A stretch of 61,607 bases of DNA from the NCBI GenBank assembly GCA_018674955.1, contig JABGZB010000090.1, forward strand, positions 1 to 61,607. The letters are read 5' to 3'. The notes under the pieces were generated by a model. The model searched no databases, was not told the origin of the DNA, and saw nothing but the letters and a program-made list of their open reading frames with translations. Below, piece by piece: positions 3,529 through 61,523 of the stretch. Within the stretch, counting starts at the first letter, position 1. Every line of letters begins with the position of its first letter. The translations under genes and the position numbers were made by a program. Source of the stretch: Verrucomicrobiota bacterium. Its GTDB lineage: Bacteria > Verrucomicrobiota > Verrucomicrobiia > Limisphaerales > UBA1096.

Positions 3529-4794
3529 CTACCGCTGCGCCTCGATGCGATACAAATGGCCGCCCGTGCGCATGATGAAAGCATCGCCATCGACGGCGGG
3601 CGTCGCCATGAACGGCTGCTTAGCCAGAGCATTACTGGCGATGACCTCAAGTTTGCGAGTTGGCCGGATGATTGTGGCAAGCCCTTCCTCGTTAAACAGG
3701 TAAATTCGCCCCTCTGCGTAGATGGGCGACGCCGAGTACGCGCCCTTCATACGTTCCTTCCAGACGACCTTTCCGGTTCTCGCCTCAAGGCAGGTCGCGA
3801 TGCCGCCGCGGTTCACGACAAACAACAAGTCATCTACCAGCAACGGCGAACAACGTTGCGGCATGCTGCGGATTGACTTCCATTGAATGTGTGAGTCGGT
3901 CACATCGCCGTTTCCATCGAGACGAATAGCCCATAGCTCCGGCCGATCGCGATCCACTGTGGCAAACACCATCCCGTGACCGGACACCGGACGCGGTGCC
4001 ACCGACCAGCCTCGATGCCGCACGTGCCACAGTTCCTTGCCGGTTTCCGGGTCGTAGGCGTACAGGCCGCGTCCTGCTGGGCTGACAAGCTGTGTGCCCT
4101 CACCGCGCGGCGCCAACGCCGGCATGCAGTACGCCTTGCGATGATTGATGGGAAATGTGGAATACTCGAGGGACCGCGGTGTTTTCCAGACCGTCTTCCC
4201 GGTGACCTTGTCGAGAGCGATGATGTACTGCACGTCACGCCCGTCCACATGCACCACCAAATTGCCATCAACGAGAGTCGGCGAACTGGCCGGCCCAGCG
4301 CCCGCCTCGTGGTCGCAGTTTAAGTCGCGCCGAGTCCACAACACCCTGCCAGTGGCAGTGTCCAGACAGGCCGTGCCGTAGGTTCCAAAATGAAGAATCA
4401 CCCGGCCCTCACTGATCACCGGCGTAGGCGTCGCGTAGGTGTTGTCCTTCGTGATCCGCATCGGCTTGGCCACGTCGAACAAATGCAGATCGTGAAGAAT
4501 CTTCCCGTTGTCCTTGTCCACGCAAATCGCGAACAGCTTACGGCCTTTGGCCGTTGCCGTGGTCAACCATACCTGACTACCCCAGATCACCGGTGACGAC
4601 CAACCTCGATTGTGAATGGCCGTTTTCCAAGTCACATTCTGCGACTCCGACCACCTCAGAGGCAGGCCGGTGGACTTCGTGTGCCCGTCGCCGCTTGGCC
4701 CACGGAACTGCCACCAATTTTCCTCGGCAGAAACTGGTGTAAGCACAAGGAACAAAAACGCGAAACAAGCCAACCGCTTGGCCAAGCTTTGCAT
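3529..4794 (-). CDS. PQQ-like beta-propeller repeat protein, secreted
   Basis: MQSLAKRLACFAFLFLVLTPVSA is a signal peptide. Repeated W-x-motifs are typical of PQQ/BamB-like propellers. I chose the internal ATG at 4794. Confidence 0.75.
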   Translation of the reverse strand: MQSLAKRLACFAFLFLVLTPVSAEENWWQFRGPSGDGHTKSTGLPLRWSESQNVTWKTAIHNRGWSSPVIWGSQVWLTTATAKGRKLFAICVDKDNGKILHDLHLFDVAKPMRITKDNTYATPTPVISEGRVILHFGTYGTACLDTATGRVLWTRRDLNCDHEAGAGPASSPTLVDGNLVVHVDGRDVQYIIALDKVTGKTVWKTPRSLEYSTFPINHRKAYCMPALAPRGEGTQLVSPAGRGLYAYDPETGKELWHVRHRGWSVAPRPVSGHGMVFATVDRDRPELWAIRLDGNGDVTDSHIQWKSIRSMPQRCSPLLVDDLLFVVNRGGIATCLEARTGKVVWKERMKGAYSASPIYAEGRIYLFNEEGLATIIRPTRKLEVIASNALAKQPFMATPAVDGDAFIMRTGGHLYRIEAQR

Positions 4795-4820
4795 GGTTGC
4801 CGGAAAAACAAATGAGGCTT

Positions 4821-4961
4821 TCACGTTGCAGTCAATTTGGAGGGAGAGAGGCCCTCTCGGCGGGCGCGAGTGCAGGTAACAGCATATTTGCCAAAATGGC
4901 AATGGACGATCACCACCAGTAACTCAATGAGCGTGAATGCCCGTCTTAATTGAGCTTTCAT
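4821..4961 (-). pseudogene. Truncated prepilin-type N-terminal methylation-domain gene fragment
   Basis: [18 protein letters not shown] is a class III signal/methylation motif. It runs straight into unrelated sequence (VHCHFGKY...) instead of the conserved [13 protein letters not shown] seen in the intact paralogs at 11947 and 12736. It is fused in frame to the junction repeat upstream. Confidence 0.45.
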
Positions 4962-5004
4962 TTCAGCTTTCAATTCTTCACCCGTCTTGCCGCCATGTTT
5001 GCGG
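4962..5004 (-). repeat. Junction repeat copy (encodes ...ADFLRKHGGKTGEELKAE)
   Basis: The sequence is ttcagctttcaattcttcacccgtcttgccgccatgtttgcgg. This is the longest copy. Confidence 0.7.
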
Positions 5005-5108
5005 AGGAAGTCGGCGATCGTTGTGGTTAGGACTGCTTTTCGTAATAAAATGTTTTGCATTTTCTCGCGGGTCTCCTCTTGGTTTTGTCTGGACGGACTT
5101 GCGAAGAA

Positions 5109-7712
5109 TCAGCGCTCAGCCTTGGCATAGACATCGAGCTGATGGATCGACCAGTGCTTGCCATCCGCCATCCCAATCTGGTTAATGCGGACAAAACGCG
5201 TCTTTGTTGCCGGGAGCAGGATGTCGGTGACGGGTGAATTTCCTTTCTGAGGACTGACCACCTGCTTCCATTGCTCGCCATCATCGGAAACTTCCAGCGT
5301 GTAGCGGCGCGGATAATCGGCGGGTGAACCCTCGCAGCGCAACGTGATCCCGGTGAGTTCGCGAGACTCCTTCATATCAAAGGAGAACCACATGCCCTTC
5401 CGCTGCGCACGACCAGTGTCCCATCGTGTTCTCGGATTGTTATCGATGGCCTGATCGCATCCTTTGCTCTGGTGACTGGCGGTCAGTTCCCACTTTGCCA
5501 TCTCGGCTGCAGGAATCGGAGCCATGGCCAAGATCTCTGATGACAGGAACATTTCCTTGCGATCGGCGATGGCTGCACGAACCGCTGCGACGTCATCCTT
5601 ACTGACGGACTTGCCCTTGTTTCCCCATGCACTGCGTACATAGGTCAGCACCGAGCCCAGCCATTCATCATCATAGGATTCGAGCGGCAACATTGGGCCA
5701 GGATACGACTTGCCATCCAGCTCGCCATGCATCCCTTTGAGCAGGATCTTGATGGGGATGGTTTTCCGTCCGAGAACGCGAGGCGAACCCACGAGTGGGG
5801 CTCCGAGCATTACTCCATCCAAACCGGGAGCGGAAGTGCCTTTGCCGTTCGCTCCGTGGCAGGCAACGCAAACGGTCTGGAAATTCACCTCACCCTGGGC
5901 CGCGAATTTGCTCTTCTCCTGACGGCGTTTGGCATCGACCATCCGGGCATGCCCGATCTCGGTGATGCGGCTCATTGCTTCGCTATCGGGATGGCCCGCA
6001 TTGGCTGCCTCCACCAATTCATCGCCGCCTTCGACTCCCGTGTAGGCCATCGACAACACGACTTGAATCGCGACATCGATGTCGGCATCAGAAGCAAGCG
6101 GTTTGATTGCAGTGAGCAATGCTGTATTCCTCTTCAGCAGTTCGGGTTCGCAAAGTCGTACCACCGCCGCACGGACACGGGCATCTGTGTCTCGCATTTT
6201 TTTAACGATCAGATCTGTATCGAAAACTCCGAGTCCCTCCAGCGTCCACAACGCATGTAGCCTGCCTAACGGGCTCCCGCCACTCTCGGCCAGGCTTTTG
6301 AGCGCAGGAACAGCACCCCTATCCTGACGCACGACGATCAACTTCTGAGCCATGTCCCGCCACCAGCCATTCGGGTGAGAAAGCGTGTCGACCAGTTCTG
6401 AGGTCGGCGCCTTGAGCATCTGTGGTTTCTTTCGGCGCTCGATTGATTCATGGACGATGCGATAGATCCGTCCGCGCTGAATGTTCTTATCCAGCCCGTA
6501 GTTTTCGACGATCGGCCGAAGGTACGAACCGGGGCGCACCCAGTTGCCCTCCTGAATGATCCCGCGGTACATGTCACAAAGGTAAAGGCACCCGTCCGGC
6601 CCCGTCTTGGCATTGACGGGCCGAAAGTTGGCATCGCGGCTGCGCAGGAATTCTGTGCCTGGCGTGGCATTGTGCACTACCAATTTACCATTCTCATTCA
6701 CAACCTTTGCACGACGCACCAGCCGCCCGACCGGTTCTGGAATGATGTAGTCGCCGTAGAAATCTTCGGGCAGGCGATCGCCACGAAAAATGTGCTGACC
6801 TGCGCAGCCGGTGAAATTATTGAGCGTCAGACTGTCGGCACGGAATCGTCCCTTGCCACCCTGCACGTCGGGAATCTGTACTAGCGGGAACACTTCGCGA
6901 AAACCATTCACCTGCTCACCGGGGAGAGAAATTTTGCCGTAGACGAGCGGTCGTTGAAAATGCATTGCCGGGTTCTCCCCACCTGCCGTGCAGAAAAAAT
7001 TGCGCCCGACGTCATCATGCGTCACGCCCCATTGACCAGAACCACCGGGAATATCTTCAGCGATCACCTTGTCCCCTGCCCAGCGGTAACGCTTGGCGGT
7101 GTAGGTCACATACATCCAGTTGTCGATGTTCCACTCGAGTCCACTGGGCTGGTGCTCAAGGTTACCCCCGCGCTTGCCCCCTTCGTAGACCAGTTTCTTC
7201 TCATCGGCGATGCCATCGCCGTCCGTGTCTCGATAGCTGTGCAGGTCAAAGGTATCCGTTTCACGAATCAATACCCGATCATCAATCGGCTGGATCATTC
7301 GCGGCAGCTTCAACCCATCCACGAACACCGAGCGTTTGTCCATGCGGCCGTCGTCATCGGTATCCTCAAGGAGCACAACACGACAGATCGGGTTGTGCTG
7401 GTTCTTGCCATCGATTTCCTGCATGTAGGTGTTCAACTCCGCCACGTAGAGTTTTCCATCGCCATCGAATGCAATCGCTGCTGGTTCCTGCACCATCGGT
7501 TCAGCGGCCACAAGCTCGACGCGATAGCCCTCCTGGAGCTCCATCATCGCCATGCTTTCTTCCGGCGAATAGGTGCGGGCTTTGGTATCATAGAGCTTCT
7601 GATCGAAGGGTTCTGCAAGAAGCACATTGCCTGAAAACAAGGCAAGACCGATCCAAGTGAGAGGCCGTAAACTACGGAAACAGGAGAATTGGGGAAACAG
7701 GCAGTGCATCAT
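5109..7712 (-). CDS. PVC-type heme-binding / membrane-bound dehydrogenase-like protein with HEAT repeats, cytochrome c motif and C-terminal F5/8 type C (discoidin) domain
   Basis: CVACHG is a CxxCH heme site. The N-terminal region resembles a dehydrogenase-like beta-propeller. The C-terminus NNPRTRWDTG...YTLEVSDDGEQW is discoidin-like. Confidence 0.8.
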   Translation of the reverse strand: MMHCLFPQFSCFRSLRPLTWIGLALFSGNVLLAEPFDQKLYDTKARTYSPEESMAMMELQEGYRVELVAAEPMVQEPAAIAFDGDGKLYVAELNTYMQEIDGKNQHNPICRVVLLEDTDDDGRMDKRSVFVDGLKLPRMIQPIDDRVLIRETDTFDLHSYRDTDGDGIADEKKLVYEGGKRGGNLEHQPSGLEWNIDNWMYVTYTAKRYRWAGDKVIAEDIPGGSGQWGVTHDDVGRNFFCTAGGENPAMHFQRPLVYGKISLPGEQVNGFREVFPLVQIPDVQGGKGRFRADSLTLNNFTGCAGQHIFRGDRLPEDFYGDYIIPEPVGRLVRRAKVVNENGKLVVHNATPGTEFLRSRDANFRPVNAKTGPDGCLYLCDMYRGIIQEGNWVRPGSYLRPIVENYGLDKNIQRGRIYRIVHESIERRKKPQMLKAPTSELVDTLSHPNGWWRDMAQKLIVVRQDRGAVPALKSLAESGGSPLGRLHALWTLEGLGVFDTDLIVKKMRDTDARVRAAVVRLCEPELLKRNTALLTAIKPLASDADIDVAIQVVLSMAYTGVEGGDELVEAANAGHPDSEAMSRITEIGHARMVDAKRRQEKSKFAAQGEVNFQTVCVACHGANGKGTSAPGLDGVMLGAPLVGSPRVLGRKTIPIKILLKGMHGELDGKSYPGPMLPLESYDDEWLGSVLTYVRSAWGNKGKSVSKDDVAAVRAAIADRKEMFLSSEILAMAPIPAAEMAKWELTASHQSKGCDQAIDNNPRTRWDTGRAQRKGMWFSFDMKESRELTGITLRCEGSPADYPRRYTLEVSDDGEQWKQVVSPQKGNSPVTDILLPATKTRFVRINQIGMADGKHWSIHQLDVYAKAER

Positions 7713-7732
7713 AAGATATATACGGAATTTAT

Positions 7733-7951
7733 TTAATAAAAATTAGTAGTCGCCATCTTCCACACGTCCACGCTGTCTACTTTAATCTGCTCATCTCCAC
7801 TAAAGATTTTCACCTCATTACTATTTTCAGTTTCAGGATAAACAACTTGAGTCATACACTGTCTTCCGTTGACAAATACTTCAATAATAGCCTTATCAAT
7901 GAAAATATTTAATTGCAGTGTTTCGCCCTTCTTTAACTCAAAAGGAGCTCT
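7733..7951 (-). pseudogene. Start-less remnant of a glycoside hydrolase C-terminal beta-sandwich (GH32-like)
   Basis: The minus-strand open frame has no start codon. It reads APFELKKGETLQLNIFIDKAIIEVFVNGRQCMTQVVYPETENSNEVKIFSGDEQIKVDSVDVWKMATTNFY-stop. The L-x-I-F-x-D-x-x-x-x-E-V-F-x-N-x-G pattern is typical of GH32 C-terminal domains. It lies in an AT-rich 355-bp gap between two genes. Confidence 0.45.
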
Positions 7952-8067
7952 CTATTCTGACACCTTTTCTCTAAATCCTAGTTTTCCGAGATCGGCGGTC
8001 TGGCCCATTAAGACAGATCGCATTTTGCCTGTCGATCTCTCCGCCGAAGCAGCCGAGTTCGGAACCC

Positions 8068-9435
8068 TCACAGCAACCAACCTTTTCGATAGGGCGTGTG
8101 AAGAAATTCGTTGGCATCTGCGTGATCGAATTCGAATTTCTCCGCGTTCCAGTTCAGCTTCACCCCGGGCGTTCGCTGGGCGGCTACGCCGAGCAGCACC
8201 ATTTGAGTGAGCTGTCCGCCGTAGTCGGCAAAGTTGGAGCTGGCGGGATTGCCATCCTTGCAGGCGCGAAGCCAATCGCCCATGTGTCCGCCCCTAACGC
8301 GCGGAATCGTTTTCTCGGGGCGGACGAAACCTTTCATCCGGATTTCCGGAATGAGGCGAGCCCCACCCGCTCCGTGAGAACCGTGCAAAATAGTTTCCTT
8401 CTCGCCGTAGATCACCGCACCGCTTGCCGGTAGTTTTCGACCTTCCTCCAGCATGGGTGGGCGGGGAACCGTGTAGACCCCATCATGCCAGACCAGCTTC
8501 ATCGGGCAGAGTGTTCCACGTTGAGGAAACTCGTAGGTTACGGTGGCCGCTATGGGGTGGGCCTTACCGGCTAATTCAGGTTTGTGGTGTTTGACTTCAG
8601 CGGTGATGCTGCTGGGATTCATGAGGTCCAGCGCCCAGCATGCGGGATCCAGAATGTGACAACCCATATCGCCCAGCGCGCCAGTTCCGAAATCCAACCA
8701 GGCCCGCCACTTGAACGGATGATAGGCTGGACTGAACTTCCGATCCTGCGTCGGGCCGAGCCAGAGGTCCCAGTTGAGACTGTCGGGTACAGCAGGAAAG
8801 TCCGAGGGTAAATCTCGAGCGCCAAAGTTGGCGTACCAGGGGCCGTCGTCCGGACGATCGGTCCAGGCGTGCACTTCTTTGACATCGCCGATGGAACCGG
8901 ACTGAACCCACTCGCGGACGACACGGATGGCATCCGAGGAATGCCCTTGATTGCCCATCTGGGTCTGAACCTTGGACGCGCGTGCCGCAGCAGTAATCTT
9001 GCGCGCTTCCTCGACGGTGTGGGTCAGCGGTTTCTGGCAGTAGACATGCTTGCCCATCTCGATGGCTGCCATGGTGATGACTGCATGGGTATGATCCGGA
9101 GTCGCGATCACGACCGCGTCGATATCCTTCTGTTTTTCAAGCATTAGCCGATAGTCGACATACGTGGCTGCGTTGGGATGGGCTTTAAACGTTTTTCCCG
9201 CGTACGCGCTGTCGACATCACACAGGGCGACGACATTTTCCCCTTTGCAGGCTCCGATGTTGCCCCGCCCCATCCCGCCGATGCCGATGCCGGCAATGTT
9301 CAACTTTTCACTGGGCGGGGTCTTTCCGTTCGCCCCGACCACATGCCCGGGAACGATGGAAAAAACAGTGGCCGCGGTGGTACCGATTTTGATGAATGAC
9401 CGGCGTGATAGCTCTTTTTTACGTGTGTTTCTCAT
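8068..9435 (-). CDS. Gfo/Idh/MocA family oxidoreductase with TAT signal
   Basis: The leader is SRRSFIKIGTTAATV, and GIGGMGRGN and ATPDHTHA are present. It is a paralog of the genes at 1062-2393 and 42798-44084. Confidence 0.85.
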   Translation of the reverse strand: MRNTRKKELSRRSFIKIGTTAATVFSIVPGHVVGANGKTPPSEKLNIAGIGIGGMGRGNIGACKGENVVALCDVDSAYAGKTFKAHPNAATYVDYRLMLEKQKDIDAVVIATPDHTHAVITMAAIEMGKHVYCQKPLTHTVEEARKITAAARASKVQTQMGNQGHSSDAIRVVREWVQSGSIGDVKEVHAWTDRPDDGPWYANFGARDLPSDFPAVPDSLNWDLWLGPTQDRKFSPAYHPFKWRAWLDFGTGALGDMGCHILDPACWALDLMNPSSITAEVKHHKPELAGKAHPIAATVTYEFPQRGTLCPMKLVWHDGVYTVPRPPMLEEGRKLPASGAVIYGEKETILHGSHGAGGARLIPEIRMKGFVRPEKTIPRVRGGHMGDWLRACKDGNPASSNFADYGGQLTQMVLLGVAAQRTPGVKLNWNAEKFEFDHADANEFLHTPYRKGWLL

Positions 9436-10045
9436 ACTGTTTCTTCCTGTCGTTTTTTGGTGCTATTTCGTCTCTGGACCAATCCAGTGCTTCTGGATAA
9501 CCAGTCACCAATCGTAGGCGTGCCAAACGGCCATATTTTATGGCAAGAAAAGCTGATCCATCAGCGGCGACGCCACCATTGCCGATGGGGGAATCATCGT
9601 ATCTGTACTCGTGCACACGCTTTTTCTTTTCAAGGTCGTACAGGACGGTAAATAATTTGCCCGTCTTGACATCTCGGTCGTTAAAAAAGAACTGTGTTTC
9701 AGCTTTCAACGGGTTCCAATAAAACATGGTGCCCTGCTGGGGATTGCATGCGTGTGTTTTGTCTAACCGTACAATCTTGTTGTTCTGGTCGGTATCAATG
9801 ACAAACACAGTAGAGGCCTCATCAGGGTTCGGCATGCGATCGATTCTGTCTATTTCAAGGCCCAGCACATATCGTCCACTGGCGTTCCACGGAATCGTCT
9901 GGCATTGGCCGATGTAGCCAAAAAAATGATGCTTTTTGCCAGAATTCAGTTGCTCAACCTTCAAACTGATTAAGGGTTTTATTTCAGCATAATTTTTCAG
10001 GCAACCGACGACGCTAACAAACAAAATGGCTAATACTTTCATCAT
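9419..10045 (-). CDS. Hypothetical secreted protein, possibly a truncated beta-propeller family gene
   Basis: The start is MMKVLAILFVSVVG at 10045. The ORF ends 17 nt inside the start of the next gene and looks short for its family. No recognised catalytic motif. Confidence 0.4.
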   Translation of the reverse strand: MMKVLAILFVSVVGCLKNYAEIKPLISLKVEQLNSGKKHHFFGYIGQCQTIPWNASGRYVLGLEIDRIDRMPNPDEASTVFVIDTDQNNKIVRLDKTHACNPQQGTMFYWNPLKAETQFFFNDRDVKTGKLFTVLYDLEKKKRVHEYRYDDSPIGNGGVAADGSAFLAIKYGRLARLRLVTGYPEALDWSRDEIAPKNDRKKQYEKHT

Positions 10046-10139
10046 AGAATAATTGTTTATATTGTAAGTGAAAATATCTGGAAACAACTGTGCCCCACCA
10101 CCAGCAGCACGGCTGCGATTTTTGTGAGTAGGAGGTGTT

Positions 10140-11134: not shown

Positions 11135-11155
11135 TTTTTTCTTCCTTCAAGCTGC

Positions 11156-11167: not shown

Positions 11168-11179
11168 GCAGAACACGAC

Positions 11180-20027: not shown

Positions 20028-20031
20028 CGAC

Positions 20032-56300: not shown

Positions 56301-56534
56301 CGCCCCGCCGTCCGCTTGGCCAAGCGGCGTTTGCGACTCAATCAGCATGTCGAGGTCACCGTCACCGTCGAGATCCGAAAGCGTGATGGACGGCGTCTCG
56401 CTCGGCGCAGGTGCCTTGGCCGGCCCGCTCGCCCAAGTGACGGCAAAAGCCATCCCGGCGGTGATGCAGACGGGGACAAAAAGAAACTTCCAGCGACGGG
56501 CCAAAAGCTGAATCTGGCGAACTTGGGGAATCAT
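44310..56534 (-). CDS. Giant modular surface/adhesin-like protein (4074 aa)
   Basis: This is a single uninterrupted ORF. The N-terminus has a TM/signal segment, a DLDGDGDLD FG-GAP/VCBS-like motif and a ~600-aa propeller-like region. Six Ig I-set-like domains carry the (Y/I)QW motif. InlB B-repeat-like domains are present (GxGxVxxxP...GYxFxxWxGDASG). There are bacterial Ig-like domains (PPTVxxTSP...DxDGxV) and three LamG/ConA-like domains (LRLWLD...FDGxDD...VYNRAL). A C-terminal beta-sandwich repeats a domain seen four more times. Confidence 0.85.
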   Translation of the reverse strand: MIPQVRQIQLLARRWKFLFVPVCITAGMAFAVTWASGPAKAPAPSETPSITLSDLDGDGDLDMLIESQTPLGQADGGAVDVFTNDGDRMTPLAIGLARHELDSGLGELLPGYVRWLAGADSTDALPSDDLVGVAPLPPLPPGMAAAAPERFDTKPSVLGDDYPEIRTLMMNFTDLAGRVAAANPELDETVRRHRLLSIQKMGAPGEAAKLRPNGPRLLGGDFEPGVRDDFLGVIDNHTAIPADTHGAVGPEHLVVALNTEIAIQTREGELLSKVGLGDFWAGFSHGFVFDPKVVYDHLAKRWVVFTIADVNTTKSAVLIALSQTSDPSGDWDMASIRVHPEAEADNYLYADYPSVGYNKKWLAASVNLYKGTNQVEGTKEFVGSRIYAFHKPDYIRGRRAFYTQFDDPGFFTVVPATTYDANDTNLLFITEQGTSALRISALSGRVGQEHYTPNYARTSLDGIEAWEFSIGKTNISPQKAATKSIFANDSRMHALAKRNGELWAAHHVFLPEGITNVNRTAIQWWNLETNAAILQRGYIQDTNAVKHYTFPSVAVNKNDDVLIGYSGFTKGTYASAYFSYRKASDPLGKMSKPALFKAGVAPYVKLRADGRNSWGDYSAAQVDPNNDTDMWTIQMYAETRNIEQANIPDEKRDRWGTWWGFMAFQPDDPPVVTQQPASQTVMQFGSTVSLEVQLSGAAPLTYQWRFEKKDIAGATAATYTIDNYQPEHMGRYEVVIRNGVGFTRSKTAVLDAILPTIGAPEKAKLISGANVTMTAAPTPVDTVIGIHTNVVLRVEPKGTGPFGYQWSFNGEAIDGATAATVELGVMTPDTEGTYSVNVRTAIGETTSELTALEWLIFDEPEFFNLNLTEAQLGFQVRGHRWTTNAFEYSGDLRNWKLLKKGDQADEMFNASGQSSKSINRPDGVNTLFVRALLKTEKYSKNAIGFVRVTYPKGKSLIANPLDREDGNTVANLFASLPEGSSLAQLDEDGGELVVNVFEGGAWGNPAMTLDPGEGAVLDITGEGQIAVEYFGVALQGDLASAIPAAAAFRSAMTPVDGGVTTALGLPTAEGLQVQLFDNDSGSYDTYTFTADAWQPSEPVIALGQAFRVISGAAFEWQQSVAYNEIILPEVTTQPEDQVVTSGSWLALSVRGKGDPLEYQWYFDGAAIDGATRNALAFEEAAEANAGQYTVKLTNRFGAATSLPSSVAVHYVINRATTGAGRIVLNPLQDHYAPGTQVTFTGVPEEGYSFASWGGDASGDSAQTTVAVDKHLTVTADFSRDYIMPTLTDPDFRSDGNFQFTVVAEPGVENNIQYSFDLENWVDYRTDTNPGELYIPVIPPVGAKGMYFRVLVTGKGYSDNIVGFQLLDVPTGKSLLSNPLVKGDNTLATLLPDGPPKLSVSTWNSGSGSWKASTFGDAWSDVGLVVAPGQAVMFDNQTGAALTLQFTGSVLQGSLSSSLPSGESYHAATLPIAGGLATDFGFPAVKGLQVALLDNATGDWVTSTFSDGAWSPSELSLAAAQGFRVTANAATSWDRDINLNSQGTPKIAIQPIGAMRIAGQPVAFSVEATGTPLEYQWRFNGLNINGANAATLELADVQQANAGDYSVYIRNPFGNILSDTASLAVHYTLGVAGAGRGTVTHTPELETYPNKARVVLNATPKKGYVFTGWSGAASGAANPLAVTMDANKVITGSFTRDVVPPEYRSVEINTAGQLEWVQVARPGKKLTSDYSLDLLNWKEFTSDSSASGEMRVPFDRPQGINHLFIRTWEEDTGYAARAIGYVTLTLPSGKSLISNPLANGGNRVSDILPSVPSGSTLAKFNPATGKWETNTFNSAWSHPGMTLAPGEGAVLDNKGDAFSVLLTGFTPWQKTSLFIPAGDSVVSPALAKGGLLSSRLGLPLAEGLVVKLLKNGTGKYDAYTVSNGAWTPAEPVVALGQAFIVTAPSAMQWSHDPTLPQVTSQPSDAQVLSGGQAGFIVKAVGEPLAYQWLFDGKPIAGATASAIQLPVVSIANAGHYSVLVSNGFGKTISESARLDIYYKLKLALEGRGGIGVDPEKSVFLAGNKVTLSASSATGYSWMHWSGDAAGSDETISVTMDAHKTITANFSRDYILPDLSGAGFDVKGRFTFLLSSEPGANCEIQGSTDGIRWYKLVDYQNKNGLVRIPMAYNAGVEKQFVRVLVADELAPGRLAGHSLNGVGYVNLDIPPGQSLYHVPLALSGNKTVATLFQGAAKGSKVAVLNAETGEWAEGELSDTWSNGAVELGQGSIFKFTNPDTKAFRAVFVGSYLGQGAEVTLASGSGYFGYPSPLSGAAGYDLQFPASAPAGTKLGLLQANGETAWHTYDGANWSPSEPSLATMQAGEIDLAADLSWATHGMPDFNSKPKLRAITGAGTYLAGTETLLIGLDAVGTPMTIQWTKNSEPIVGATQQQLQLVNLAPSHAGRYAVTLRNAFGIENSNPVEINVHYSLTTTVAEGEGTIEINPSLATYPPGTTVTLTARPGEGLGYDEWEGDASGSAESVTLVMDDHKSVSIRYIADNQPPTVAITSPKNGRFFSAPSDVVITAAAADADGSIASISYERKLLEAADWVALGQAADVAAPFTWEGASEGVYEIRATVTDNRGAKGVSAPIQITLTTGNLPPVVVSTSPAAGDFVPVPGKFTFTVAAYDPDGEIKSIRINEGYTFTKANGPTYWTENDEGQTVLTDIRWMGGAYANSTPTVFTVDVEDNQGKITTEKVSFTVNHAPTIELTSPTNGAEFVSPATIAFAATASDNAADGAMRKVEFFANGEMIANLASAPFEAAWEGVSAGDYEIIAAVTDRHGQKVETAPVSITVSQGADITLTAPAEDIAFAPGGTTRLAASVTPGDAAITKVDFFKNDQLIGTDTEAPYELDWAEPEPGLYRISATATDAKGGSATSGAIGAAVFDSATLPALGLRLWLDGNSVTQDGGKVSAWADRTPFGHDVSQVEAGKQPALAGEGVNGQAAVEFDGADDVLGATVNGTGLLSSDAASIFIVMKQAKASANNAVFGWESDSHSNHLDLLFTYNDQLLFDHGNVSAGGRISAPQPERWDDLWNLVEVHRAGTNGRVAVAGETVFSGTFAGELDVEVDGALTLGGVGGLHYGGAIAEMLVYNRALSDAEIAQVRSVMAAKFDLPVSANQPPTVSLTKPEGGVSLKAGKTLQLAARASDADGSVVKVRFLAGEQVIGEDTEAPYKLEWTPAEAGEVQLSAVAIDDRDGQGISAVVSVTVLPPNVAPEVVITSPNAGQGVSVGVTLKVSASATDSDGTVVSVEISADGESLVKRSEAPYEADWHLAKAGLQTMTVRATDNDGATSEASVSVAVYGETPVPVDGLRLWLDAGEELTVSDAGVVSAWGDRSLFGHDVSQAELGLQPALAIDTLNGKAAVLFDGADDNLSRADVAGTSLLSSDAVSVYAVVRQSKKSAANTVLAWEAPNYKNHLALLTSYNDQFLVDHGSATEGGRVSAAQPEGWDDAWHVLEFVRGGNTATVNVDSDTLELGEFGSALNADVSGTLSVGASPGLAFGGEIAEVLVYNRALTKPEQDGVKGYLGARYGLFVTANQAPTVTLSAPASGTVIKQGKSLALRADAADADGSVVKVLFFSGATTLGVDETAPYEMEWAVATEGEHLLTAVAVDNRGAETISEVVSVTVLPPNTVPEVVINSPNAGLGVSVGATLKVSASATDSDGTVVSVEILANGESLAKRSEAPFEVDWTLAKEGLQTVTVRATDNDGATSEATVTVAVYGDSPVPVDGLRLWLDGSSVTQEGGKVSAWADRSLFGHDVSQADEDLQPTLAADSLNGLAAVLFDGENDVLARAAVAGEALLSPDAVSVYAVVRQKWQSKMNTVLAWEAPNYKNHLALLTSYNNQFLIDYGNVSEGGRVSAAQPEGWDDAWHVLEFMREGNTATVNVDSDALELGEFGAALKMDVSGTLLVGEAATLAFGGEIAEVLIYNRALGVGERESVSQYLGVKYGFIEDVTPVDPNAPTLSAVQLAVDDKFRFLVTGDKGGKVVLQFSENLDKWTDMQTYTNESGQLWININRGADAGRLFFRVRAE
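44560..47760 (-). repeat. In-frame tandem repeat, period 1263 bp (LamG + 2 Ig-like domains), about 2.5 units
   Basis: The stretch ccgcttggccaagctctcgccgttggccaagatttccacc at 45366 recurs at 46629 with 3 substitutions. Long near-identical runs include ccaccgacaccacggtgccgtcgctgtcggttgcgct. A third, more diverged unit lies near 47.1-47.7 kb. Boundaries are approximate. Confidence 0.75.
48950..53400 (-). repeat. Tandem array of ~1.25-kb modules (Ig I-set + InlB-B-like + beta-sandwich + ~200-aa domain), diverged
   Basis: The (Y/I)QW Ig motifs recur at about 53.06, 51.81, 50.58 and 49.30 kb. Protein-level repeats include GKSLISNPL, YxFxxWxGDA and FxRV. Boundaries are approximate. Confidence 0.65.
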
Positions 56535-56655
56535 GGTTGGGTTGCGTTAAAGTTTATCGGATTTCAACGGACGGTAACAGGCACCGATTATGGCCCCCCG
56601 GCCTCGGCCGAGTCAATGCCTTGCGCCCCCCATAAACCGCCCTATACTGCCGCCC

Positions 56656-57960
56656 GTGCTGGATATCAGAGAGATTCGAGATAACCCCGACCACGTCCGC
56701 GAACGCCTCGCCACCCGAGGGAAGGAGTTCGCCACCAAGGTCGATGACCTCGTGCGGCTCGACGCCGAGCGCCGCGAGGCGATCACCGCCGTCGAGGAAC
56801 TCAAGGCCAAGCGCAACGCCGCCTCCAAAGAAATCGGCGCGCTTATGGGCAAGAAAAAGACCGACGAAGCCGAAGCCAAAAAAGCCGAGGTGCGCGACAT
56901 CGGTGACCGGATTTCCGCGTTAGACAGCCAAGCCGCCCAAGTCGACGGCGAGTTGCGCGACATCCTGCTGCGACTGCCCAACCTCCCGCACGCCGATGTG
57001 CCGGTCGGTGCCAGCGAGGATGACAATGTGGAAACCCGCCATTGGGGCGAGAAGCCAAGTTTCGATTTCGAGACCAAGCCGCACACCGAGCTTTGCGAGA
57101 GCCTCGGGTTGGTGGATTTCGCGCGCGGGGCCAAGCTCGCTGGCAGCGGCTTCCTGCTTTACAGCGGCTGGGGTGCGCGGCTCGAGCGCGCACTCATCCA
57201 ATACCTGCTCGATATGCACGTGCACGAACACGGCTACACCGAAATGTCGCCGCCGTTCATGGTCAGCTACGACTGCATGATCGGCGTCGGCCAGTTTCCC
57301 AAGTTCGAGGATCAGGCTTACATGGTGCAGGAGGGGCTCGACGAGGAGAGCCGGGGCAAACTTTACCTCGTCCCCACCGCCGAGGCGCCGGTCGCCAACA
57401 TCCACCGCGAGGAGTTGCTCAAGGCCGGCGAGCTGCCGAAAAACTACTGCGCATACAGCCCTTGTTTTCGCGCCGAGGCCGGTGCGGCCGGGGTCGGAAC
57501 GCGCGGCATGATTCGAGTGCACCAGTTCGACAAGGTCGAGCTGATCAAAATCGTCGAGCCGGAGACCAGTTACGACGAACTCGACAAGTTGCTCGGCCAC
57601 GCCGAGAAGGTGCTGCAGTCGCTCAATCTCCATTACCGCATCCTGCAACTTTGCACCGCCGACATGAGCTTCGGCAGCGCGACCACCTACGACATCGAGG
57701 TCTGGGCGCCGGGCCAGGGCAACTACCTCGAGGTGTCCAGCTGCTCCAACTGCGAGGACTACCAATCGCGCCGGATGAACCTCCGCTACAAGGATGCCGA
57801 CGGCAAAAACCGCCATCCGCACATCCTTAACGGCAGCGGCACGGCGCTCGCGCGGCTGTTCGTCGCGCTCATCGAGACCTATCAGCAGCCGGACGGCAGC
57901 ATCCTGATCCCTGAGCCGCTGCAAAACTATCTTCGAACTGACCGCATCCCCGCCAATTAA
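56656..57960 (+). CDS. serS: Seryl-tRNA synthetase
   Basis: (V/M)LDIREIRDNPDHVRERL begins the coiled-coil N-terminus. Class II motifs include FRAEAGAAG and GSGTALARL. The start is GTG at 56656. Confidence 0.92.
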   Translation: MLDIREIRDNPDHVRERLATRGKEFATKVDDLVRLDAERREAITAVEELKAKRNAASKEIGALMGKKKTDEAEAKKAEVRDIGDRISALDSQAAQVDGELRDILLRLPNLPHADVPVGASEDDNVETRHWGEKPSFDFETKPHTELCESLGLVDFARGAKLAGSGFLLYSGWGARLERALIQYLLDMHVHEHGYTEMSPPFMVSYDCMIGVGQFPKFEDQAYMVQEGLDEESRGKLYLVPTAEAPVANIHREELLKAGELPKNYCAYSPCFRAEAGAAGVGTRGMIRVHQFDKVELIKIVEPETSYDELDKLLGHAEKVLQSLNLHYRILQLCTADMSFGSATTYDIEVWAPGQGNYLEVSSCSNCEDYQSRRMNLRYKDADGKNRHPHILNGSGTALARLFVALIETYQQPDGSILIPEPLQNYLRTDRIPAN

Positions 57961-57975
57961 CCCGGCGACTCAGTC

Positions 57976-59361
57976 ATGAAGATCCTCCACGCCAGCAGCG
58001 AGGTGTTCCCGTATTCCAAGACGGGCGGGCTGGCGGACGCCACGGCGGCCTTAGCCAAGGCGCAGGCGGTGGCCGGGCACGCCGTCACCCTCGTCACGCC
58101 GTTGTATCGCGGCATCCGCGAAAAGTTCGATGGCCTCAAGCCGCTTGGCCGGGCGCGGATGCCGACCAAGGTTTGGCGGCTCGAGCCGTCGCCAAACCTG
58201 ACCGTGCTGTTTATCGACGAACCGGAGTGGTTCGATCGCGACGGCCTTTACGGTCACGCCGATGACGCCGAGCGGTTCATCTTTTTTTCAAAGTGCGTCG
58301 CCCATTTGGCCTGGCGCGCGGAGATCGTCAACGCGCACGACTGGCAAGGCGGCCTCGTCATGCCGCTGCTAGGGGACGCGCCGGTCGGCAAGGTTTTCAC
58401 CATTCACAACGCCGCTTATCAGGGCTGCTTTCCCGCCGATAAGTTTGAGCTGACCGGATTGCCGAAATCTTTTTTCGATTGGCGGCAACTTGAGTTTCAC
58501 GGCGGCGTCAGTTTCCTCAAGGGCGGTATCGTGTTCGCCGATCTTGTCACCACCGTGAGCCCGCGCTACGCCCGCGAATTGTTGACAGAGGAATACGGCT
58601 GCGGCCTCGAGGGGGTGTTCCAAGCACGGGGCGACGCGCTGACCGGCGTGCTTAACGGCGTCGATTACACCGAGTGGAACACGACCGACAATCCGCACCT
58701 CGCAGCCGCCTATTCCGCCGATTCGCCGGATGGCAAATCTCTCAACAAGCGAGCGCTGCAACGTGAGCTTGGCCTGCCGCTACTCGACGGAGTGCCGCTA
58801 CTCGGCAACATCAGCCGTTTCACCGATCAGAAGGGGATCGATATTTTACTCGGAGCGCTGGAGGCATTGATTGGCAGCGGGGCGGCGTTTCAGTTTGCCG
58901 GGCTGGGCAGCGGCGATCCGTTGCTCGAGAAGGCGATGAGCGGCTTGGCCAAGCGGCACCCGGAACAGGTCGCCGTGAAGGTCGGCTACGACACCGGCTT
59001 GGCGCACCGCATTGAGGCCGGCAGCGATTTTTTTGTGATGCCGTCCCGCTTCGAGCCGTGCGGCCTGAACCAGCTTTACAGCCTGCGTTACGGCTCGGTG
59101 CCGGTCGTGCGCGCCACCGGCGGGCTGGACGACTCGGTGATTGATCTTGGCCAAGGGGAGGCGTCGGCGACCGGTATCAAGTTTGCGGACTGCTCAGCGG
59201 AGGCGCTTGGTCGCGCGCTTGGCCGCGCGCTGTCGATTTACGCCAGGCCCAAGAGCCTGACCAAGGTGCGCGACAACGGCATGCGGGCCGACTTTTCGTG
59301 GGGACAAACAACAGCTGAGTACGAGAGGTTGTACGCCAAAATAAAAAAGCCGGCTGCGTAA
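57976..59361 (+). CDS. glgA: Glycogen synthase (ADP-glucose type)
   Basis: The N-terminus is MKILHASSEVFPYSKTGGLADA, and MPSRFEPCGLNQLY is present. Confidence 0.9.
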   Translation: MKILHASSEVFPYSKTGGLADATAALAKAQAVAGHAVTLVTPLYRGIREKFDGLKPLGRARMPTKVWRLEPSPNLTVLFIDEPEWFDRDGLYGHADDAERFIFFSKCVAHLAWRAEIVNAHDWQGGLVMPLLGDAPVGKVFTIHNAAYQGCFPADKFELTGLPKSFFDWRQLEFHGGVSFLKGGIVFADLVTTVSPRYARELLTEEYGCGLEGVFQARGDALTGVLNGVDYTEWNTTDNPHLAAAYSADSPDGKSLNKRALQRELGLPLLDGVPLLGNISRFTDQKGIDILLGALEALIGSGAAFQFAGLGSGDPLLEKAMSGLAKRHPEQVAVKVGYDTGLAHRIEAGSDFFVMPSRFEPCGLNQLYSLRYGSVPVVRATGGLDDSVIDLGQGEASATGIKFADCSAEALGRALGRALSIYARPKSLTKVRDNGMRADFSWGQTTAEYERLYAKIKKPAA

Positions 59362-59370
59362 ACAGCCGGC
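59349..59370. terminator. Hairpin between convergent glgA and the secretin gene
   Basis: GCCGGCTG-cgtaaa-CAGCCGGC forms the stem, and the glgA stop lies in the loop. On the minus strand it is followed by cTTTTTTaT, so it is best placed to terminate the secretin transcript. Confidence 0.5.
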
Positions 59371-59390
59371 TTGGGTAAAATCGATCCCGA

Positions 59391-61523
59391 TCAGAACGGC
59401 GGCTTGGAGCGTGATTTGCGGGTTGGCAACTGCAATTTGCGGGCCGGTTTTTCGCTGATGTTTGCGTTGTCGCTTCTCCTGGAAATCTTTTTATCCACTT
59501 TTCTCCGGCGAGCTTCCTCGGCGGCCTTGAACTCGGCCTCGGCCTCGCGAATGCCAGGCAGGCGCATGCGTTCCTGCGAGACCATCAACGCGGCGTCCTC
59601 GGGCGACTTAAGAATGGTCGGGCGAATCAAGACGAGCAGTTCCGATCGTTTGCTTGTAGCGGATTGATTCTTGAACAGGTTCCCCAGGAGGGGAATGTCC
59701 TTGAGAAACGGCACGCCGGACTCTGTGTCGGTCTTGGCGTCCCGGACGAAGCCGCCCAACAGGATCGTGTCGCCGTCCCGGACCGAGATGGTGGAGCTAG
59801 CCTCGCGCTCGGTCGTTTGCGGGGCCTTCTGGCCGGCAGCTCCCTGCTGCCCGCCGCCCATGTCGATAAAGCCGTCCAACTCCGATATGGTTTGCTGAAT
59901 CTCCATGACGACCAAGTCATCCGGTGTGATGTATGGCGTCACGTCCAGCGTGATACCCACATTTAGAAACTGGGTGTAGCCGCCGCCGTAACCGCCGCCG
60001 TAACCGCCGCCGTAACCGCCGTAACCGCCACCGTAACCGCTGCTCCCCTGGTAGGGAACCTGCTCACCGTTGAAGAATGTCGCCGGAACGGCGTGACTGG
60101 TCTGCACACGCGGGGTTTGCAGCACCTTGGCCGTGCTGTTGCTCGCCAATGCGCTTACGGCAAACTCAAGTGAATTGTCATAGCGGCTGATATAGGAAAA
60201 CCCACCTGCCAAGGCACCGGCGCCGAGTGTGTTGAGGGCACTCCCTGCAGCGGCGACGACATTACCAGCATCGGCAGCATCGGCAGCATCCGTAGGTGTT
60301 GTGGGAGCAGCCCCGGCTGCCGAAGGGCCGCCGTTCATAGAACCGCCGATATGGCGGGTGTCTCCGGGGCCTGCCGCCGTATGCATAAAGGCGTTCATCC
60401 CGGTGTCCATGCCGTCGGTCAGGGTCACGTTCACGATGATGGCCTCGATGAGCACCTGCGCCAACAGGCTGTCCACGTAGCCGACGATTTCTTCAATTTT
60501 CGCCATGTCGCCGTCATTGGCGAATATGATTAATGAGTTGGAACGGTAATCGGGGATGATGCGGGCATTCTCCAAAATTTGAATGTCGCCGCCGGCGGCG
60601 CGGTTCACGATGCCTTGTAGCCTGTTGCGGAATGAGCTGGACGTACTACTGGAGGTCGAGGGGCGGTTCTGAAGGGACCGAACCGAACCCCGCGATGAGC
60701 TGGTTCGGCCCATGCTGCCCTGCGATGAACTGGTTCGGCCCGAGGTCCTCGAGGTGCCGGAGGAGCTTGGCCGAGGCGAACTGGAGCCAGTGATCAGATC
60801 CTGCATGGTGGCGTAGATTTCCTCCACCTTGCCGTATCGGATCGGGATGACCTTGAGCTTGTAGTCCTCCTCTGGCTTGATGTCGATGCGCTCGAGCAGC
60901 TCAAGCATCCGCTTGATGTTGGAGGAGTTGTCCCGCAGAACGAGCGTCTTGCTGACGTCGAGCGCCACGATGCCGGCGGCGTTCTTGGCCATCGGCGTGA
61001 GCATCGGCACAGCCTCGCTGGGCAGGATGTGTTTCAACTGCTTGATGTGCGTGATGTACTGGTTGGCCTCAGGCAGTTCCTCAGCACTGTCAATAATCGA
61101 GAACGCAGCTCCCTCCTGCAACGCATTGGCGCTAGGCACGAACGTGACGAATTTTTCCCCGACCGGGATGGTGGTGTAGCCGTTGAGCGAGAGGACGCTG
61201 TCCATGGCCTGAATGGCCTCCACGACGGTCAGCGGTGTCTGCGCCTGAAGGGTGACGTTGAGATTGGGCAACGCCGCCGCTCGCAGGATGGTTCGGTTGA
61301 CGTAATTGGCGTAAATCTCAAGGAACTGCTCCAGCGGCATGTTGACCAGTTGCAGGTCGGCCATCGGGATGACGACGTCCATTGCCAGGGGCGCATCGGC
61401 AGGATCAGCCGGGGCGGCCGCTGCTGCGTTGTCGGGTGTCGGCGGAGCGGGTGGGTTCACGGGTTGCGCTTGGCCAAGCGCTGCGAATGTCAATGTGAGG
61501 ATACCTGTGATGAGTTTTTTCAT
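59391..61523 (-). CDS. Secretin (GspD/PilQ family outer-membrane channel)
   Basis: The secretin C-domain includes VLQTPRV, GITLDVTPYI, RDGDTILLGGF and VPFLKDIPLLGNLF. N-terminal domains are NolW-like. The likely start is MKKLITGILTLTFAALGQA at 61523, and the ORF-track start at 61553 is also possible. Confidence 0.85.
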   Translation of the reverse strand: MKKLITGILTLTFAALGQAQPVNPPAPPTPDNAAAAAPADPADAPLAMDVVIPMADLQLVNMPLEQFLEIYANYVNRTILRAAALPNLNVTLQAQTPLTVVEAIQAMDSVLSLNGYTTIPVGEKFVTFVPSANALQEGAAFSIIDSAEELPEANQYITHIKQLKHILPSEAVPMLTPMAKNAAGIVALDVSKTLVLRDNSSNIKRMLELLERIDIKPEEDYKLKVIPIRYGKVEEIYATMQDLITGSSSPRPSSSGTSRTSGRTSSSQGSMGRTSSSRGSVRSLQNRPSTSSSTSSSFRNRLQGIVNRAAGGDIQILENARIIPDYRSNSLIIFANDGDMAKIEEIVGYVDSLLAQVLIEAIIVNVTLTDGMDTGMNAFMHTAAGPGDTRHIGGSMNGGPSAAGAAPTTPTDAADAADAGNVVAAAGSALNTLGAGALAGGFSYISRYDNSLEFAVSALASNSTAKVLQTPRVQTSHAVPATFFNGEQVPYQGSSGYGGGYGGYGGGYGGGYGGGYTQFLNVGITLDVTPYITPDDLVVMEIQQTISELDGFIDMGGGQQGAAGQKAPQTTEREASSTISVRDGDTILLGGFVRDAKTDTESGVPFLKDIPLLGNLFKNQSATSKRSELLVLIRPTILKSPEDAALMVSQERMRLPGIREAEAEFKAAEEARRRKVDKKISRRSDNANISEKPARKLQLPTRKSRSKPPF
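59976..60040 (-). repeat. Imperfect GCCGCCGTAACC-type microsatellite encoding GYGGGYGGYGGGYGGGYGGGY
   Basis: Units of 9-12 nt are repeated about 6 times inside the secretin domain coding region. Confidence 0.85.

Follow-up and report, generated by a model that had tools for sequence, protein, structure and literature searches.

The question raised by this stretch of DNA is why one and the same short palindrome should recur dozens of times along it, inside genes of unrelated function as well as between them. The stretch, referred to as the window, is contig JABGZB010000090.1 of a Verrucomicrobiota bacterium, analysed over its whole length of 61,607 nucleotides, and the word is the perfect 14-bp palindrome CGCTTGGCCAAGCG, which contains the 12-mer GCTTGGCCAAGC and, at its centre, the octamer TTGGCCAA. 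It is nearly certain that CGCTTGGCCAAGCG is a lineage-specific, genome-wide and highly iterated palindrome, of the kind represented by HIP1 of cyanobacteria and by the uptake signal sequences (USS) of Pasteurellaceae. With the same near-certainty, a process that recognises the sequence and acts on resident double-stranded DNA drives the word to about one copy per kb, with protein-coding constraint and mutation as the only brakes.

The octamer occurs 46 times in the window, while dinucleotide-shuffled sequences hold a mean of 1.40 copies (maximum 6); the 12-mer occurs 16 times (0.02 expected) and the 14-mer 10 times (0 expected). A first reading made from the sequence alone (the sequence-only reading) had given these same three counts, all of which were matched exactly on recount, and most of its 12-mer start positions are right, although three need correction (37762 and not 37761, 48760 and not 48770, 61468 and not 61469). 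An order-3 Markov model expects 3.9 octamers, which gives an observed to expected ratio of 12 (33 against the dinucleotide shuffles), and the density equals 747 per Mb. When synonymous codons were shuffled per gene with the proteins unchanged (39 mapped genes), 6.3 ± 2.4 copies were obtained (maximum 14) against 39 observed, and permutation of whole codons within genes expects only 2.1. The sequence-only reading had proposed Markov and codon-aware expectations as a check on its claim, and the excess persists against both. Near-matches are abundant too, as 74 sites in the window lie within three mismatches of the 14-mer (7.1 ± 2.7 in shuffles). Ranked by frequency, the first seven 8-mers in the window are without exception contained in the 14-mer, likewise four of the next six, and TTGGCCAA is by a wide margin the commonest palindromic octamer. 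Since the giant Ig-repeat gene carries 0.98 copies per kb and the other native DNA 0.94, the excess is not due to that gene; confinement to its modules had been named by the sequence-only reading as an outcome that would refute the claim. The word also goes on past the window: flanking DNA of a near-identical strain, located via glgA, holds nine more copies in the 7.75 kb past the window end. Spacing of the copies is near random (coefficient of variation 0.78, n = 44), and 10 of the 39 genic copies lie within 150 nt of gene ends (19% expected, p = 0.18), a mild and non-significant tendency. The excess is real, beyond composition, codon usage or protein content.

What exactly is iterated can be seen from the flanks of the 46 copies, with both orientations pooled and positions counted from the dyad. 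Position -5 is C in 80% of copies, -6 is G in 61%, -7 is C in 57% and -8 is G or C in 84%, while beyond ±8 bp no base is conserved, so the motif is not part of a larger element. The same flanks, CGC...GCG, surround the core in both reading frames and in spacers. The half-site GCTTGGCC was considered as the true unit, prompted by a maximal-order Markov model (46 observed vs. 43), and was dropped because the two halves are strongly correlated: CGCTTGG is found 88 times on both strands (28 expected), its partner half has zero to two mismatches in 45 of these, and where both arms, CTT....AAG, are present, GGCC forms the centre in 30 of 43 cases. The unit is therefore a single cooperative 14-bp palindrome, accompanied by a halo of degenerate copies.

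Most copies, 39 of 46 (85%), are intragenic. The genes are of unrelated function and include a sulfatase, sufU and those that the sequence-only reading had assigned and Pfam supports, namely hrpB (five copies), sufD (two), sufS (two), a cysQ-like gene (one), glgA (two), the secretin N-terminus (one) and the giant gene (twelve). The reading frame is TTG-GCC-AAx (L-A-K/N) in 27 copies and xTT-GGC-CAA (L-G-Q) in 12, with none read as W-P, in agreement with the earlier statement that the motif is read as R-L-A-K-R or L-G-Q-A and that the third frame is unused. The LAK tripeptide appears 38 times where composition predicts 9.5 (4x; 21 are motif-encoded) and LGQ 17 times where 5.5 are predicted (3x; 12 motif-encoded). 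The same flanks in both frames and in spacers, together with this three- to four-fold tripeptide enrichment, agree with the earlier description of a dispersed, frame-tolerant palindrome. When the window HrpB (MBT7909580.1) was aligned with 27 orthologues, four of its five copies fell at variable positions, where motif-compatible residues are found in the clade only (e.g., R-L-A-K in the clade where outgroups have I-A-R/E-R/K), while the fifth uses an ancestral L-A/V-K. The most conserved genes, ribBA, sufB, sufC and serS (4.8 kb together), have no perfect copy, although about four would be expected at 0.9 per kb. The motif shapes protein sequences.

The other seven copies are intergenic, though spacers make up only 2.2 kb (3.6%) of the window, so that the density is 3.1 per kb in spacers and 0.66 per kb in genes (about four times). 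Perfect 14-mers account for four of the seven intergenic copies vs. six of the 39 coding ones, and the 12-mer with at most one mismatch is present in 7 of the 11 native-DNA spacers of at least 30 bp. Eight intergenic copies had been listed previously; seven are clearly so, but the one at 29493 lies in the N-terminal extension of a Fur-family open reading frame (ORF) whose start is uncertain. Across 447 kb of clade DNA, spacers hold 2.3–3.3 copies per kb vs. 0.72 in coding DNA, and a copy is found in 21 of 62 tandem, 5 of 18 divergent and 7 of 18 convergent spacers. As the three spacer types are alike, the motif is bound neither to promoters nor to terminators. The earlier proposal of a DNA-level force filtered by protein constraint is supported by the codon-shuffle excess, the use of two frames as well as spacers, a spacer density about four times that of coding DNA, the motif-compatible HrpB residues of the clade, and the sharing of the word by a whole clade while outgroups and an integrated island lack it.

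An internal control is provided by DNA that looks like an integrated island beside a tRNA-Leu gene (boundaries in Table 1). This motif-poor island holds a single octamer, whereas the remaining 50.5 kb of the window hold 45, which sets native DNA at approx. 0.9 per kb. Two low-GC3 (GC at third codon positions) genes without a Pfam match, at 39530-42584, likewise have 0 copies. The motif is a property of long-resident DNA and is scarce in recently acquired DNA. As for the island itself, its genes encode a glyoxalase, GFO/IDH/MocA oxidoreductases, esterases, a pyrroloquinoline quinone (PQQ) propeller and a DUF7133/cytochrome c protein, and no integrase is visible in 89-11100. A 47-nt direct repeat (66–91% identical) stands between four successive island genes (931-977, 2529-2575, 3478-3524 and 4956-5002) and on the gene strand could read ..KHGGKTGEEFKAEGK.

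How far does the word extend beyond this genome? The 14-mer was sought in one genome per species, and multi-copy hits were obtained only in marine Verrucomicrobiota metagenome-assembled genomes (MAGs; at least 19 species-level assemblies), bar two short contigs assigned to different taxa; hits in other phyla were single and attributable to chance. The relatives are labelled Limisphaerales or Verrucomicrobiales, and the gene content of the window is typical of the Planctomycetes-Verrucomicrobia-Chlamydiae (PVC) group. For unbiased sampling, loci were picked via hrpB. Among syntenic relatives, at 94.8% nucleotide identity to the window (locus L122) the octamer density is 1.67 per kb, at 89% (L121) 1.53, at 84.6% (L124) 1.0 and at 84.5% (L125) 0.58, while a relative with 41% GC at 68% identity (L123) has 0.22 per kb, with one perfect 12-mer and several decayed copies. 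In 75 further hrpB loci, at 48–56% protein identity, the density is about 0–0.1 per kb and no comparable palindrome was found. The motif is clade-specific, in uncultured marine Verrucomicrobiota. An assembly artefact is ruled out, since the motif recurs at matching positions in independent JGI, TARA and ENA assemblies. The two contigs filed elsewhere are a 3.0-kb one under Candidatus Poseidoniaceae archaeon (L043, five TTGGCCAA) and a 2.9-kb one under Mariniblastus sp., a planctomycete (L071, two TTGGCCAA); both are probably mis-binned Verrucomicrobiota DNA.

Comparison of orthologous sites, which had been suggested as a check, shows that copies come and go (7–16 sites compared per relative). 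Window copies are retained at 8 of 9 sites in L122 (all octamers 0.71), 4 of 7 in L121 (0.45), 7 of 11 in L124 (0.30), 5 of 16 in L125 (0.31) and 2 of 11 in L123 (0.036), i.e., above average octamers in three of the five relatives (L122, L124 and L123). At positions with an unaltered amino acid, the codons TTG, GCC, GGC and CAA persist within copies in 17 of 18 cases in L124 vs. 72% elsewhere (p = 0.02) and in 17 of 20 in L125 vs. 70% outside (p = 0.11), with no clear difference in L122, L121 and L123. In a spacer at 36% divergence, the copy upstream of ribBA persists along with 10 bases beside it. Parsimony on a multi-taxon table gives at least six gains, each confined to one lineage (26457 in that of the window, 26692 and 28128 in L121, 28406 and 29678 in L124, 32461 in L122), some of them of two to four changes at 5% divergence, and at least four losses. 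At 32461, four of eight bases changed between genomes 5% apart, and the local alignment is sound. The neutral expectation, a rough figure inferred and not computed, is about one gain in the compared region from one-off sites mutating to the right base. Three of the degenerate copies (29546, 32446 and 36031) are perfect motifs in relatives. The pattern resembles a balance between a copy-generating force and mutational erosion, in which lineages resembling L125 and those of low GC appear to be losing ground. In L122, beside the site aligned to 27327, a 9-bp insertion tandemly duplicates TTGGCCAAG in hrpB, which adds three codons and a second motif copy.

The motif behaves like HIP1 and like uptake sequences, and belongs to neither family, as its word and phylum differ from those of HIP1 and its symmetry from that of the uptake sequences. 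Like HIP1, it is a GC-rich perfect palindrome in hundreds to thousands of copies per Mb, in and between genes, with palindromic extensions past the octamer, common one-off variants, a distribution that marks a whole lineage and perhaps partial conservation of copies between orthologues (PMC4390886, PMC5861425); its 747 per Mb is inside the HIP1 range of 300–2700 per Mb (PMC4390886). The parallel with HIP1 had been drawn before, as had the distinction from repetitive extragenic palindromes (REP/BIME), and both are upheld by dispersal in genes and spacers without extended flanks. Unlike the cyanobacterial case, the HIP1 word itself, GCGATCGC, is at background in the window (5 vs. 3.9 expected) and the iterated word is TTGGCCAA, the host phylum is Verrucomicrobiota and not Cyanobacteria, the preferred unit is 14 bp where that of HIP1 is 8–10 bp, and the motif has no known cognate methyltransferase, none having been found in 0.48 Mb of clade DNA. 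With the USS of Pasteurellaceae and the DNA uptake sequences (DUS) of Neisseriaceae, it shares a density of about one per kb, in genes and richer in spacers, over-represented tripeptides of its own encoding with HrpB copies at variable positions, scarcity in recently acquired DNA (island 0.09 vs. native 0.9 per kb), and occurrence throughout a clade of family or order rank, some lineages of which show decay. USS and DUS have those same properties, and molecular drive alone can explain their accumulation. They are asymmetric and read by a competence receptor (ComP in Neisseria), whereas our motif is a perfect palindrome, to which orientation does not apply.

What drives the word? Its perfect two-fold symmetry and 14-bp footprint suggest that a protein dimer reads the duplex DNA, and the explanation which we put forward tentatively, as possible rather than probable, is that the word is a self-DNA tag read by a symmetric protein in uptake and/or recombination. 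A dimer would recognise the word on duplex DNA, the word would label that DNA as 'self' and favour uptake and/or homologous recombination of DNA of the same clade, and each exchange would spread motif-bearing alleles by molecular drive, as happens with Pasteurellaceae USS and Neisseria DUS and has lately been proposed for HIP1. New copies would originate by point mutation at near-matches and would then be favoured; unconstrained spacers would saturate with copies, copies within genes would settle where L-A-K/N or L-G-Q is tolerated, and newly acquired DNA would be without copies until ameliorated. Methylation of the central GGCC/TGGCCA may form part of the recognition, as in HIP1. We prefer this explanation because the density is at the USS/DUS/HIP1 equilibrium of about one per kb with spacers saturated and proteins rewritten, because new DNA is motif-free, and because recent work ties HIP1 to transformation: HIP1 boosts natural transformation and has been proposed as an uptake signal.

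The sequence-only reading had also pointed to secretin and pilin-like genes as a sign of uptake. The secretin is indeed present, clustered with and adjoining an MshE-type ATPase, but this gives only weak context, as it is GspD-like and the N_methyl proteins are a large multi-copy family in the PVC superphylum. Past the window end at 61607 (locus L330, 11416-17388), the secretin is the last gene of a cluster which a LysR regulator adjoins; upstream of it lie ORFs of 228 and 465 residues without a Pfam match and then the ATPase (MshEN+T2SSE). The cluster is a system of the type IV filament or type II secretion-like kind.

Several points weigh against the self-tag explanation. No competence-specific gene was identified in the DNA examined, where the secretin is GspD-like. 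To our knowledge, all proven uptake sequences (USS, DUS) are asymmetric, while the motif is a perfect palindrome, and no uptake or recombination bias is measurable from sequence. Positional conservation is only modestly above background and is absent in L125 and L121. The loci of the motif scan (0.5–1.75 per kb) were chosen by the 14-mer, so their densities are biased upward. A phage contig, finally, carries the motif at a host-like density (8 copies in 13.7 kb). It is IMGVR_UViG_3300032087_002358 (L269, identical to L321; 1-13670), which encodes a terminase large subunit and a DnaB helicase and holds eight TTGGCCAA and two 12-mers vs. 0.29 expected. In a scan of viral sequences for the 14-mer, 119 of 120 loci were single chance hits and L269 alone was enriched; phages with at least 80% terminase identity to it have 0.1–0.24 per kb, a mild enrichment, and more distant ones none. 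As phage DNA enters without competence, an intracellular process fits this contig better, unless recombining prophages are involved. Among these phage relatives GC content spans 44% to 57%, as if it followed that of different hosts.

An unlikely but serious rival is that the copies are bound by an abundant protein dimer with a role in the nucleoid, in chromosome structure or in segregation, and that weak selection per copy keeps them. A perfect 14-bp palindrome is a typical homodimer footprint, some copies, including intergenic ones, are kept out to 36% nucleotide divergence, synonymous sites within copies are somewhat more conserved, and a phage would gain from host-like sites. A chromosome-structure role has likewise been argued for HIP1 by Xu et al. 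(PMC5861425). The nearest known cases, parS, the Noc-binding sites (NBS), the SlmA-binding sites (SBS) and matS, are also 12–16 bp palindromes read by dimers and scattered over the chromosome, genes included. These number tens per genome, whereas our motif would reach thousands, which counts against the binding-site explanation. Furthermore, spacers near saturation and reshaped amino-acid sequences are more like drive than selection for enough sites, the spacing is close to random, and no candidate protein was identified.

Rather improbable, in our estimate, is an orphan methyltransferase for GGCC, YGGCCR or TGGCCA with a linked repair bias that converts near-matches into the motif, either by very-short-patch repair of T:G to C:G or by methyl-directed mismatch repair, as Elhai proposed for HIP1. 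The core does hold classic 5-methylcytosine (m5C) and N4-methylcytosine (m4C) targets, HIP1 has been linked to the orphan methyltransferases DmtA and DmtC (PMC4390886), and a candidate m5C motif TGGC*CA without a REBASE match has been described in a marine MAG or viral MAG (PMC8919816). The motif-bearing phage contigs of the clade would also fit an intracellular process. Repair bias can enrich a short palindrome genome-wide, genes included, as Dcm/Vsr does with CCWGG in E. coli; that system depletes the T-containing deamination products and reads a 5-bp context, whereas here none of the 12 one-off variant classes is depleted (with the same pattern in the window), the deamination products are over-represented (TTGGCTAA 5.1x and TTGGTCAA 1.35x in the 447 kb of clade DNA), and information extends over 14 bp, longer than usual for Type II methyltransferase or Vsr contexts. 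Most motif-site differences between relatives are transitions, which could be taken in its favour, but these follow synonymous positions of the L-A-K frame and are in our reading uninformative on methylation; a C>T excess at the outer C of GGCC has the same explanation and was not used as a methylation signature. Searches for M.HaeIII, Dam and Vsr (phmmer with approximate queries, and regex motifs) found none in 2700 ORFs from the 0.48 Mb of clade DNA, which covers so little of each genome that the null is uninformative and not a true negative, and phmmer with the same approximate queries found no homologues in the phage loci. All five marine Verrucomicrobia MAGs of the survey with the TGGC*CA candidate, which may or may not belong to our clade, had neither a methylated motif nor a methyltransferase gene (PMC8919816), in data from single-molecule real-time sequencing, which detects m5C poorly. 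Among the three causes offered by the sequence-only reading (methyltransferase drive, uptake or recombination signal, operator of a dimeric protein) none is proven; the presence of GGCC/TGGCCA in the core stands, and the methyltransferase and very-short-patch idea loses ground.

With near-certainty, the motif can be discounted as a mobile element, as a peptide motif, as an RNA structure and as a compositional effect. A small mobile or structural repeat (REP/BIME or miniature inverted-repeat transposable elements, MITEs) or a terminator hairpin is a very remote prospect: such repeats are also palindromic and found in many spacers, but they are intergenic, 20–40 bp or longer and have conserved flanks, while this motif is 85% intragenic and in frame there, without extended similarity, and is refuted as such an element by both properties. 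As RNA it forms only a 5-bp stem (-3.5 kcal/mol), motif-bearing spacers fold like shuffled sequence (z-scores near 0), no T-run was found after the copies, none of the terminator-like scan hits in the window overlaps a copy, promoter and terminator scans around the motif were negative, divergent (promoter-side) spacers match convergent ones in richness, and an Rfam search gave no match. Selection for L-A-K or L-G-Q peptides or a codon-pair bias, suggested by the over-represented tripeptides, is hardly conceivable, being refuted by the intergenic enrichment of one 14-mer that also serves two frames and by the codon shuffle, and outgroup HrpB has no such residues at four of the five sites.

Taken to its full extent, the self-tag explanation would mean that a marine Verrucomicrobiota clade (Limisphaerales/Pedosphaerales-like) independently evolved a palindromic 'self' watermark whose dimeric reader favours uptake or recombination of kin DNA, which we regard as doubtful. 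If true, Cyanobacteria, Pasteurellaceae and Neisseriaceae would no longer be the only groups known to have such a system, and the implication would be that these ocean bacteria transform naturally while discriminating kin, with at least one phage that copies the tag. The purpose of HIP1 is unsettled after 30 years and the phenomenon was thought peculiar to cyanobacteria, so an independent palindrome in a second phylum enables comparison; motif-rich, decaying and motif-free Verrucomicrobiota lineages stand close together, and gene co-occurrence in them can be compared with that in HIP1, USS and DUS lineages. A DNA-level pressure is here visibly rewriting the proteins of abundant ocean bacteria. 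For practical use, the word is lineage-diagnostic in binning and for mis-binned contigs, flags recently acquired DNA, and may help in linking phages to hosts. No description of the motif, no use of the 12-mer in this sense and no link of iterated palindromes to Verrucomicrobia or the PVC group was found in the literature covered, which leaves out most subscription journals.

Table 1. Copies of the motif and island boundaries in the window. A dot in the strand column marks palindromic or strandless features; mismatches are counted against the 14-mer.
Feature	Coordinates	Strand	Context
tRNA-Leu(GAG), left boundary of integrated island	3..88	+	internal control
Motif-poor island, low GC3, 52% GC	89..11100	.	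1 TTGGCCAA in 11 kb (0.09 per kb)
35-nt direct repeat of tRNA-Leu 3' end, 89% identical	11101..11135	+	right island boundary
CGCTTGGCCAAGCT, 1 mismatch	4775..4788	.	PQQ beta-propeller gene, L-A-K; only core copy of island
CACTTGGCCAAGCG, 1 mismatch	11155..11168	.	intergenic, 20 bp outside tRNA-end repeat of island
GCCTTGGCCAATGC, core only	11832..11845	.	N_methyl pilin-like gene, L-A-K
Perfect 14-mer	14135..14148	.	sulfatase N-terminus, R-L-A-K-R
GGCTTGGCCAAGGA	14237..14250	.	sulfatase, L-A-K
CGCTTGGCCAAGTG, 1 mismatch	15623..15636	.	glycosyltransferase, L-A-K
GCTTTGGCCAAGCG	17001..17014	.	DUF255 gene, L-A-K; kept in L125
Perfect 14-mer	18019..18032	.	30-bp spacer, tandem genes
GGCTTGGCCAAGTA	18669..18682	.	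DFP/CoaB-like gene, last codons G-L-A-K-stop; kept in L125
CGCTTGGCCAATCG, 1 mismatch	21683..21696	.	intergenic, upstream of Nramp
AGATTGGCCAACGG, core only	22012..22025	.	Met-zincin gene, L-A-N; kept in 41%-GC relative L123
TCCTTGGCCAACTC, core only	23185..23198	.	Met-zincin gene, L-A-K
GCGTTGGCCAAGCC, core copy	23722..23735	.	Met-zincin gene, L-A-N; kept in L125
Perfect 14-mer	24815..24828	.	divergent spacer upstream of ribBA; kept in L121, L123; TTAGCCAA in L125
Perfect 14-mer	26090..26103	.	40-bp ribBA/hrpB spacer
CGCTTGGCCAACGT	26454..26467	.	hrpB, L-A-N; window-lineage gain; relatives have CTGGCC..
ACCTTGGCCAAGCG	26617..26630	.	hrpB, L-G-Q
GCCTTGGCCAAGCA	27324..27337	.	hrpB, L-A-K, variable protein position
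CGCTTGGCCAAGTC	27687..27700	.	hrpB, R-L-A-K; outgroups I-A-R/E
ACCTTGGCCAAGCA	28299..28312	.	hrpB, ancestral L-A/V-K tripeptide
GGCTTGGCCAAGCA	29098..29111	.	cysQ-like gene, L-G-Q; kept in L122, L124, L125
TGCTTGGCCAAGCG, 1 mismatch	29492..29505	.	13 bp past cysQ-like stop; N-terminal extension of Fur-family ORF
CGCTTGGCCAAACC	32709..32722	.	sufD, L-A-K
Perfect 14-mer	32836..32849	.	sufD, L-G-Q-A
AACTTGGCCAAGCG	34555..34568	.	sufS, L-A-K-R
CGCTTGGCCAAACG, 1 mismatch	35491..35504	.	sufS, R-L-A-K-R
CGCTTGGCCAACCG, 1 mismatch	36717..36730	.	nifU/sufU, L-G-Q
Perfect 14-mer	37761..37774	.	purU/murJ spacer
TGCTTGGCCAAGCT, perfect 12-mer	39477..39490	.	intergenic, upstream of murJ
GCCTTGGCCAAGCG	42864..42877	.	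GFO/IDH/MocA gene, L-A-K-R
CACTTGGCCAACAT, core only	43950..43963	.	GFO/IDH/MocA gene, L-A-N
Core-only copy	45325..45338	.	giant Ig-repeat gene, L-A-K
CGCTTGGCCAAGCT, 1 mismatch	45367..45380	.	giant gene, L-A-K-R
Core-only copy	45385..45398	.	giant gene, L-A-N
Core-only copy	46588..46601	.	giant gene, L-A-K
Perfect 14-mer	48759..48772	.	giant gene, L-G-Q-A
GCCTTGGCCAAGGT, core copy	49668..49681	.	giant gene, L-G-Q
CCCTTGGCCAAGCT	49743..49756	.	giant gene, L-G-Q
Core-only copy	50872..50885	.	giant gene, L-A-K
Core-only copy	51139..51152	.	giant gene, L-A-N
Perfect 14-mer	53220..53233	.	giant gene, L-G-Q-A
CGCTTGGCCAAGTG, 1 mismatch	55633..55646	.	giant gene, L-A-K-R
Perfect 14-mer	56313..56326	.	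giant gene N-terminal region, L-G-Q-A
GGCTTGGCCAAGCG, 1 mismatch	58942..58955	.	glgA, L-A-K-R
ATCTTGGCCAAGGG	59144..59157	.	glgA, L-G-Q
Perfect 14-mer	61467..61480	.	secretin N-terminus, L-G-Q-A
39 further degenerate copies, at most 3 mismatches, without exact TTGGCCAA core	622..59229	.	about 7 expected by chance, a few are noise
Degenerate copies 1–20	starts 622, 4692, 7333, 14329, 14382, 14888, 15707, 18132, 18517, 18959, 21979, 26331, 29546, 32446, 33042, 35674, 36031, 37512, 39401, 40157	.	
Degenerate copies 21–39	starts 42728, 42757, 46630, 49911, 50724, 52245, 52390, 53581, 54765, 55042, 55914, 56153, 56239, 56426, 56800, 57124, 58142, 59204, 59216	.	

A few minor observations were made alongside. 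The GFO/IDH/MocA ORF (42585-44084, + strand) overlaps the start of an 898-aa hypothetical gene (40061-42757, - strand) by approx. 170 nt, and the start codon of one of them has probably been called wrongly; the near-perfect copies at 42728 and 42757 fall within this overlap (42585-42757). Some 6-bp palindromes are avoided in the window, namely GGGCCC (1 vs. 20 expected), GAGCTC (3 vs. 23), CAGCTG (4 vs. 22) and TTCGAA (5 vs. 23), which may reflect restriction pressure; TGGCCA and GGCC show no avoidance there. Among Verrucomicrobiota-like hrpB loci, the non-palindromic 8-mer CACGCATC is frequent in two (15 times in 19.8 kb in L198, 9 times in L131) and another, CCGGATCC, is found 13 times in 22.6 kb (L176, L180); both may be further lineage-specific iterated words.

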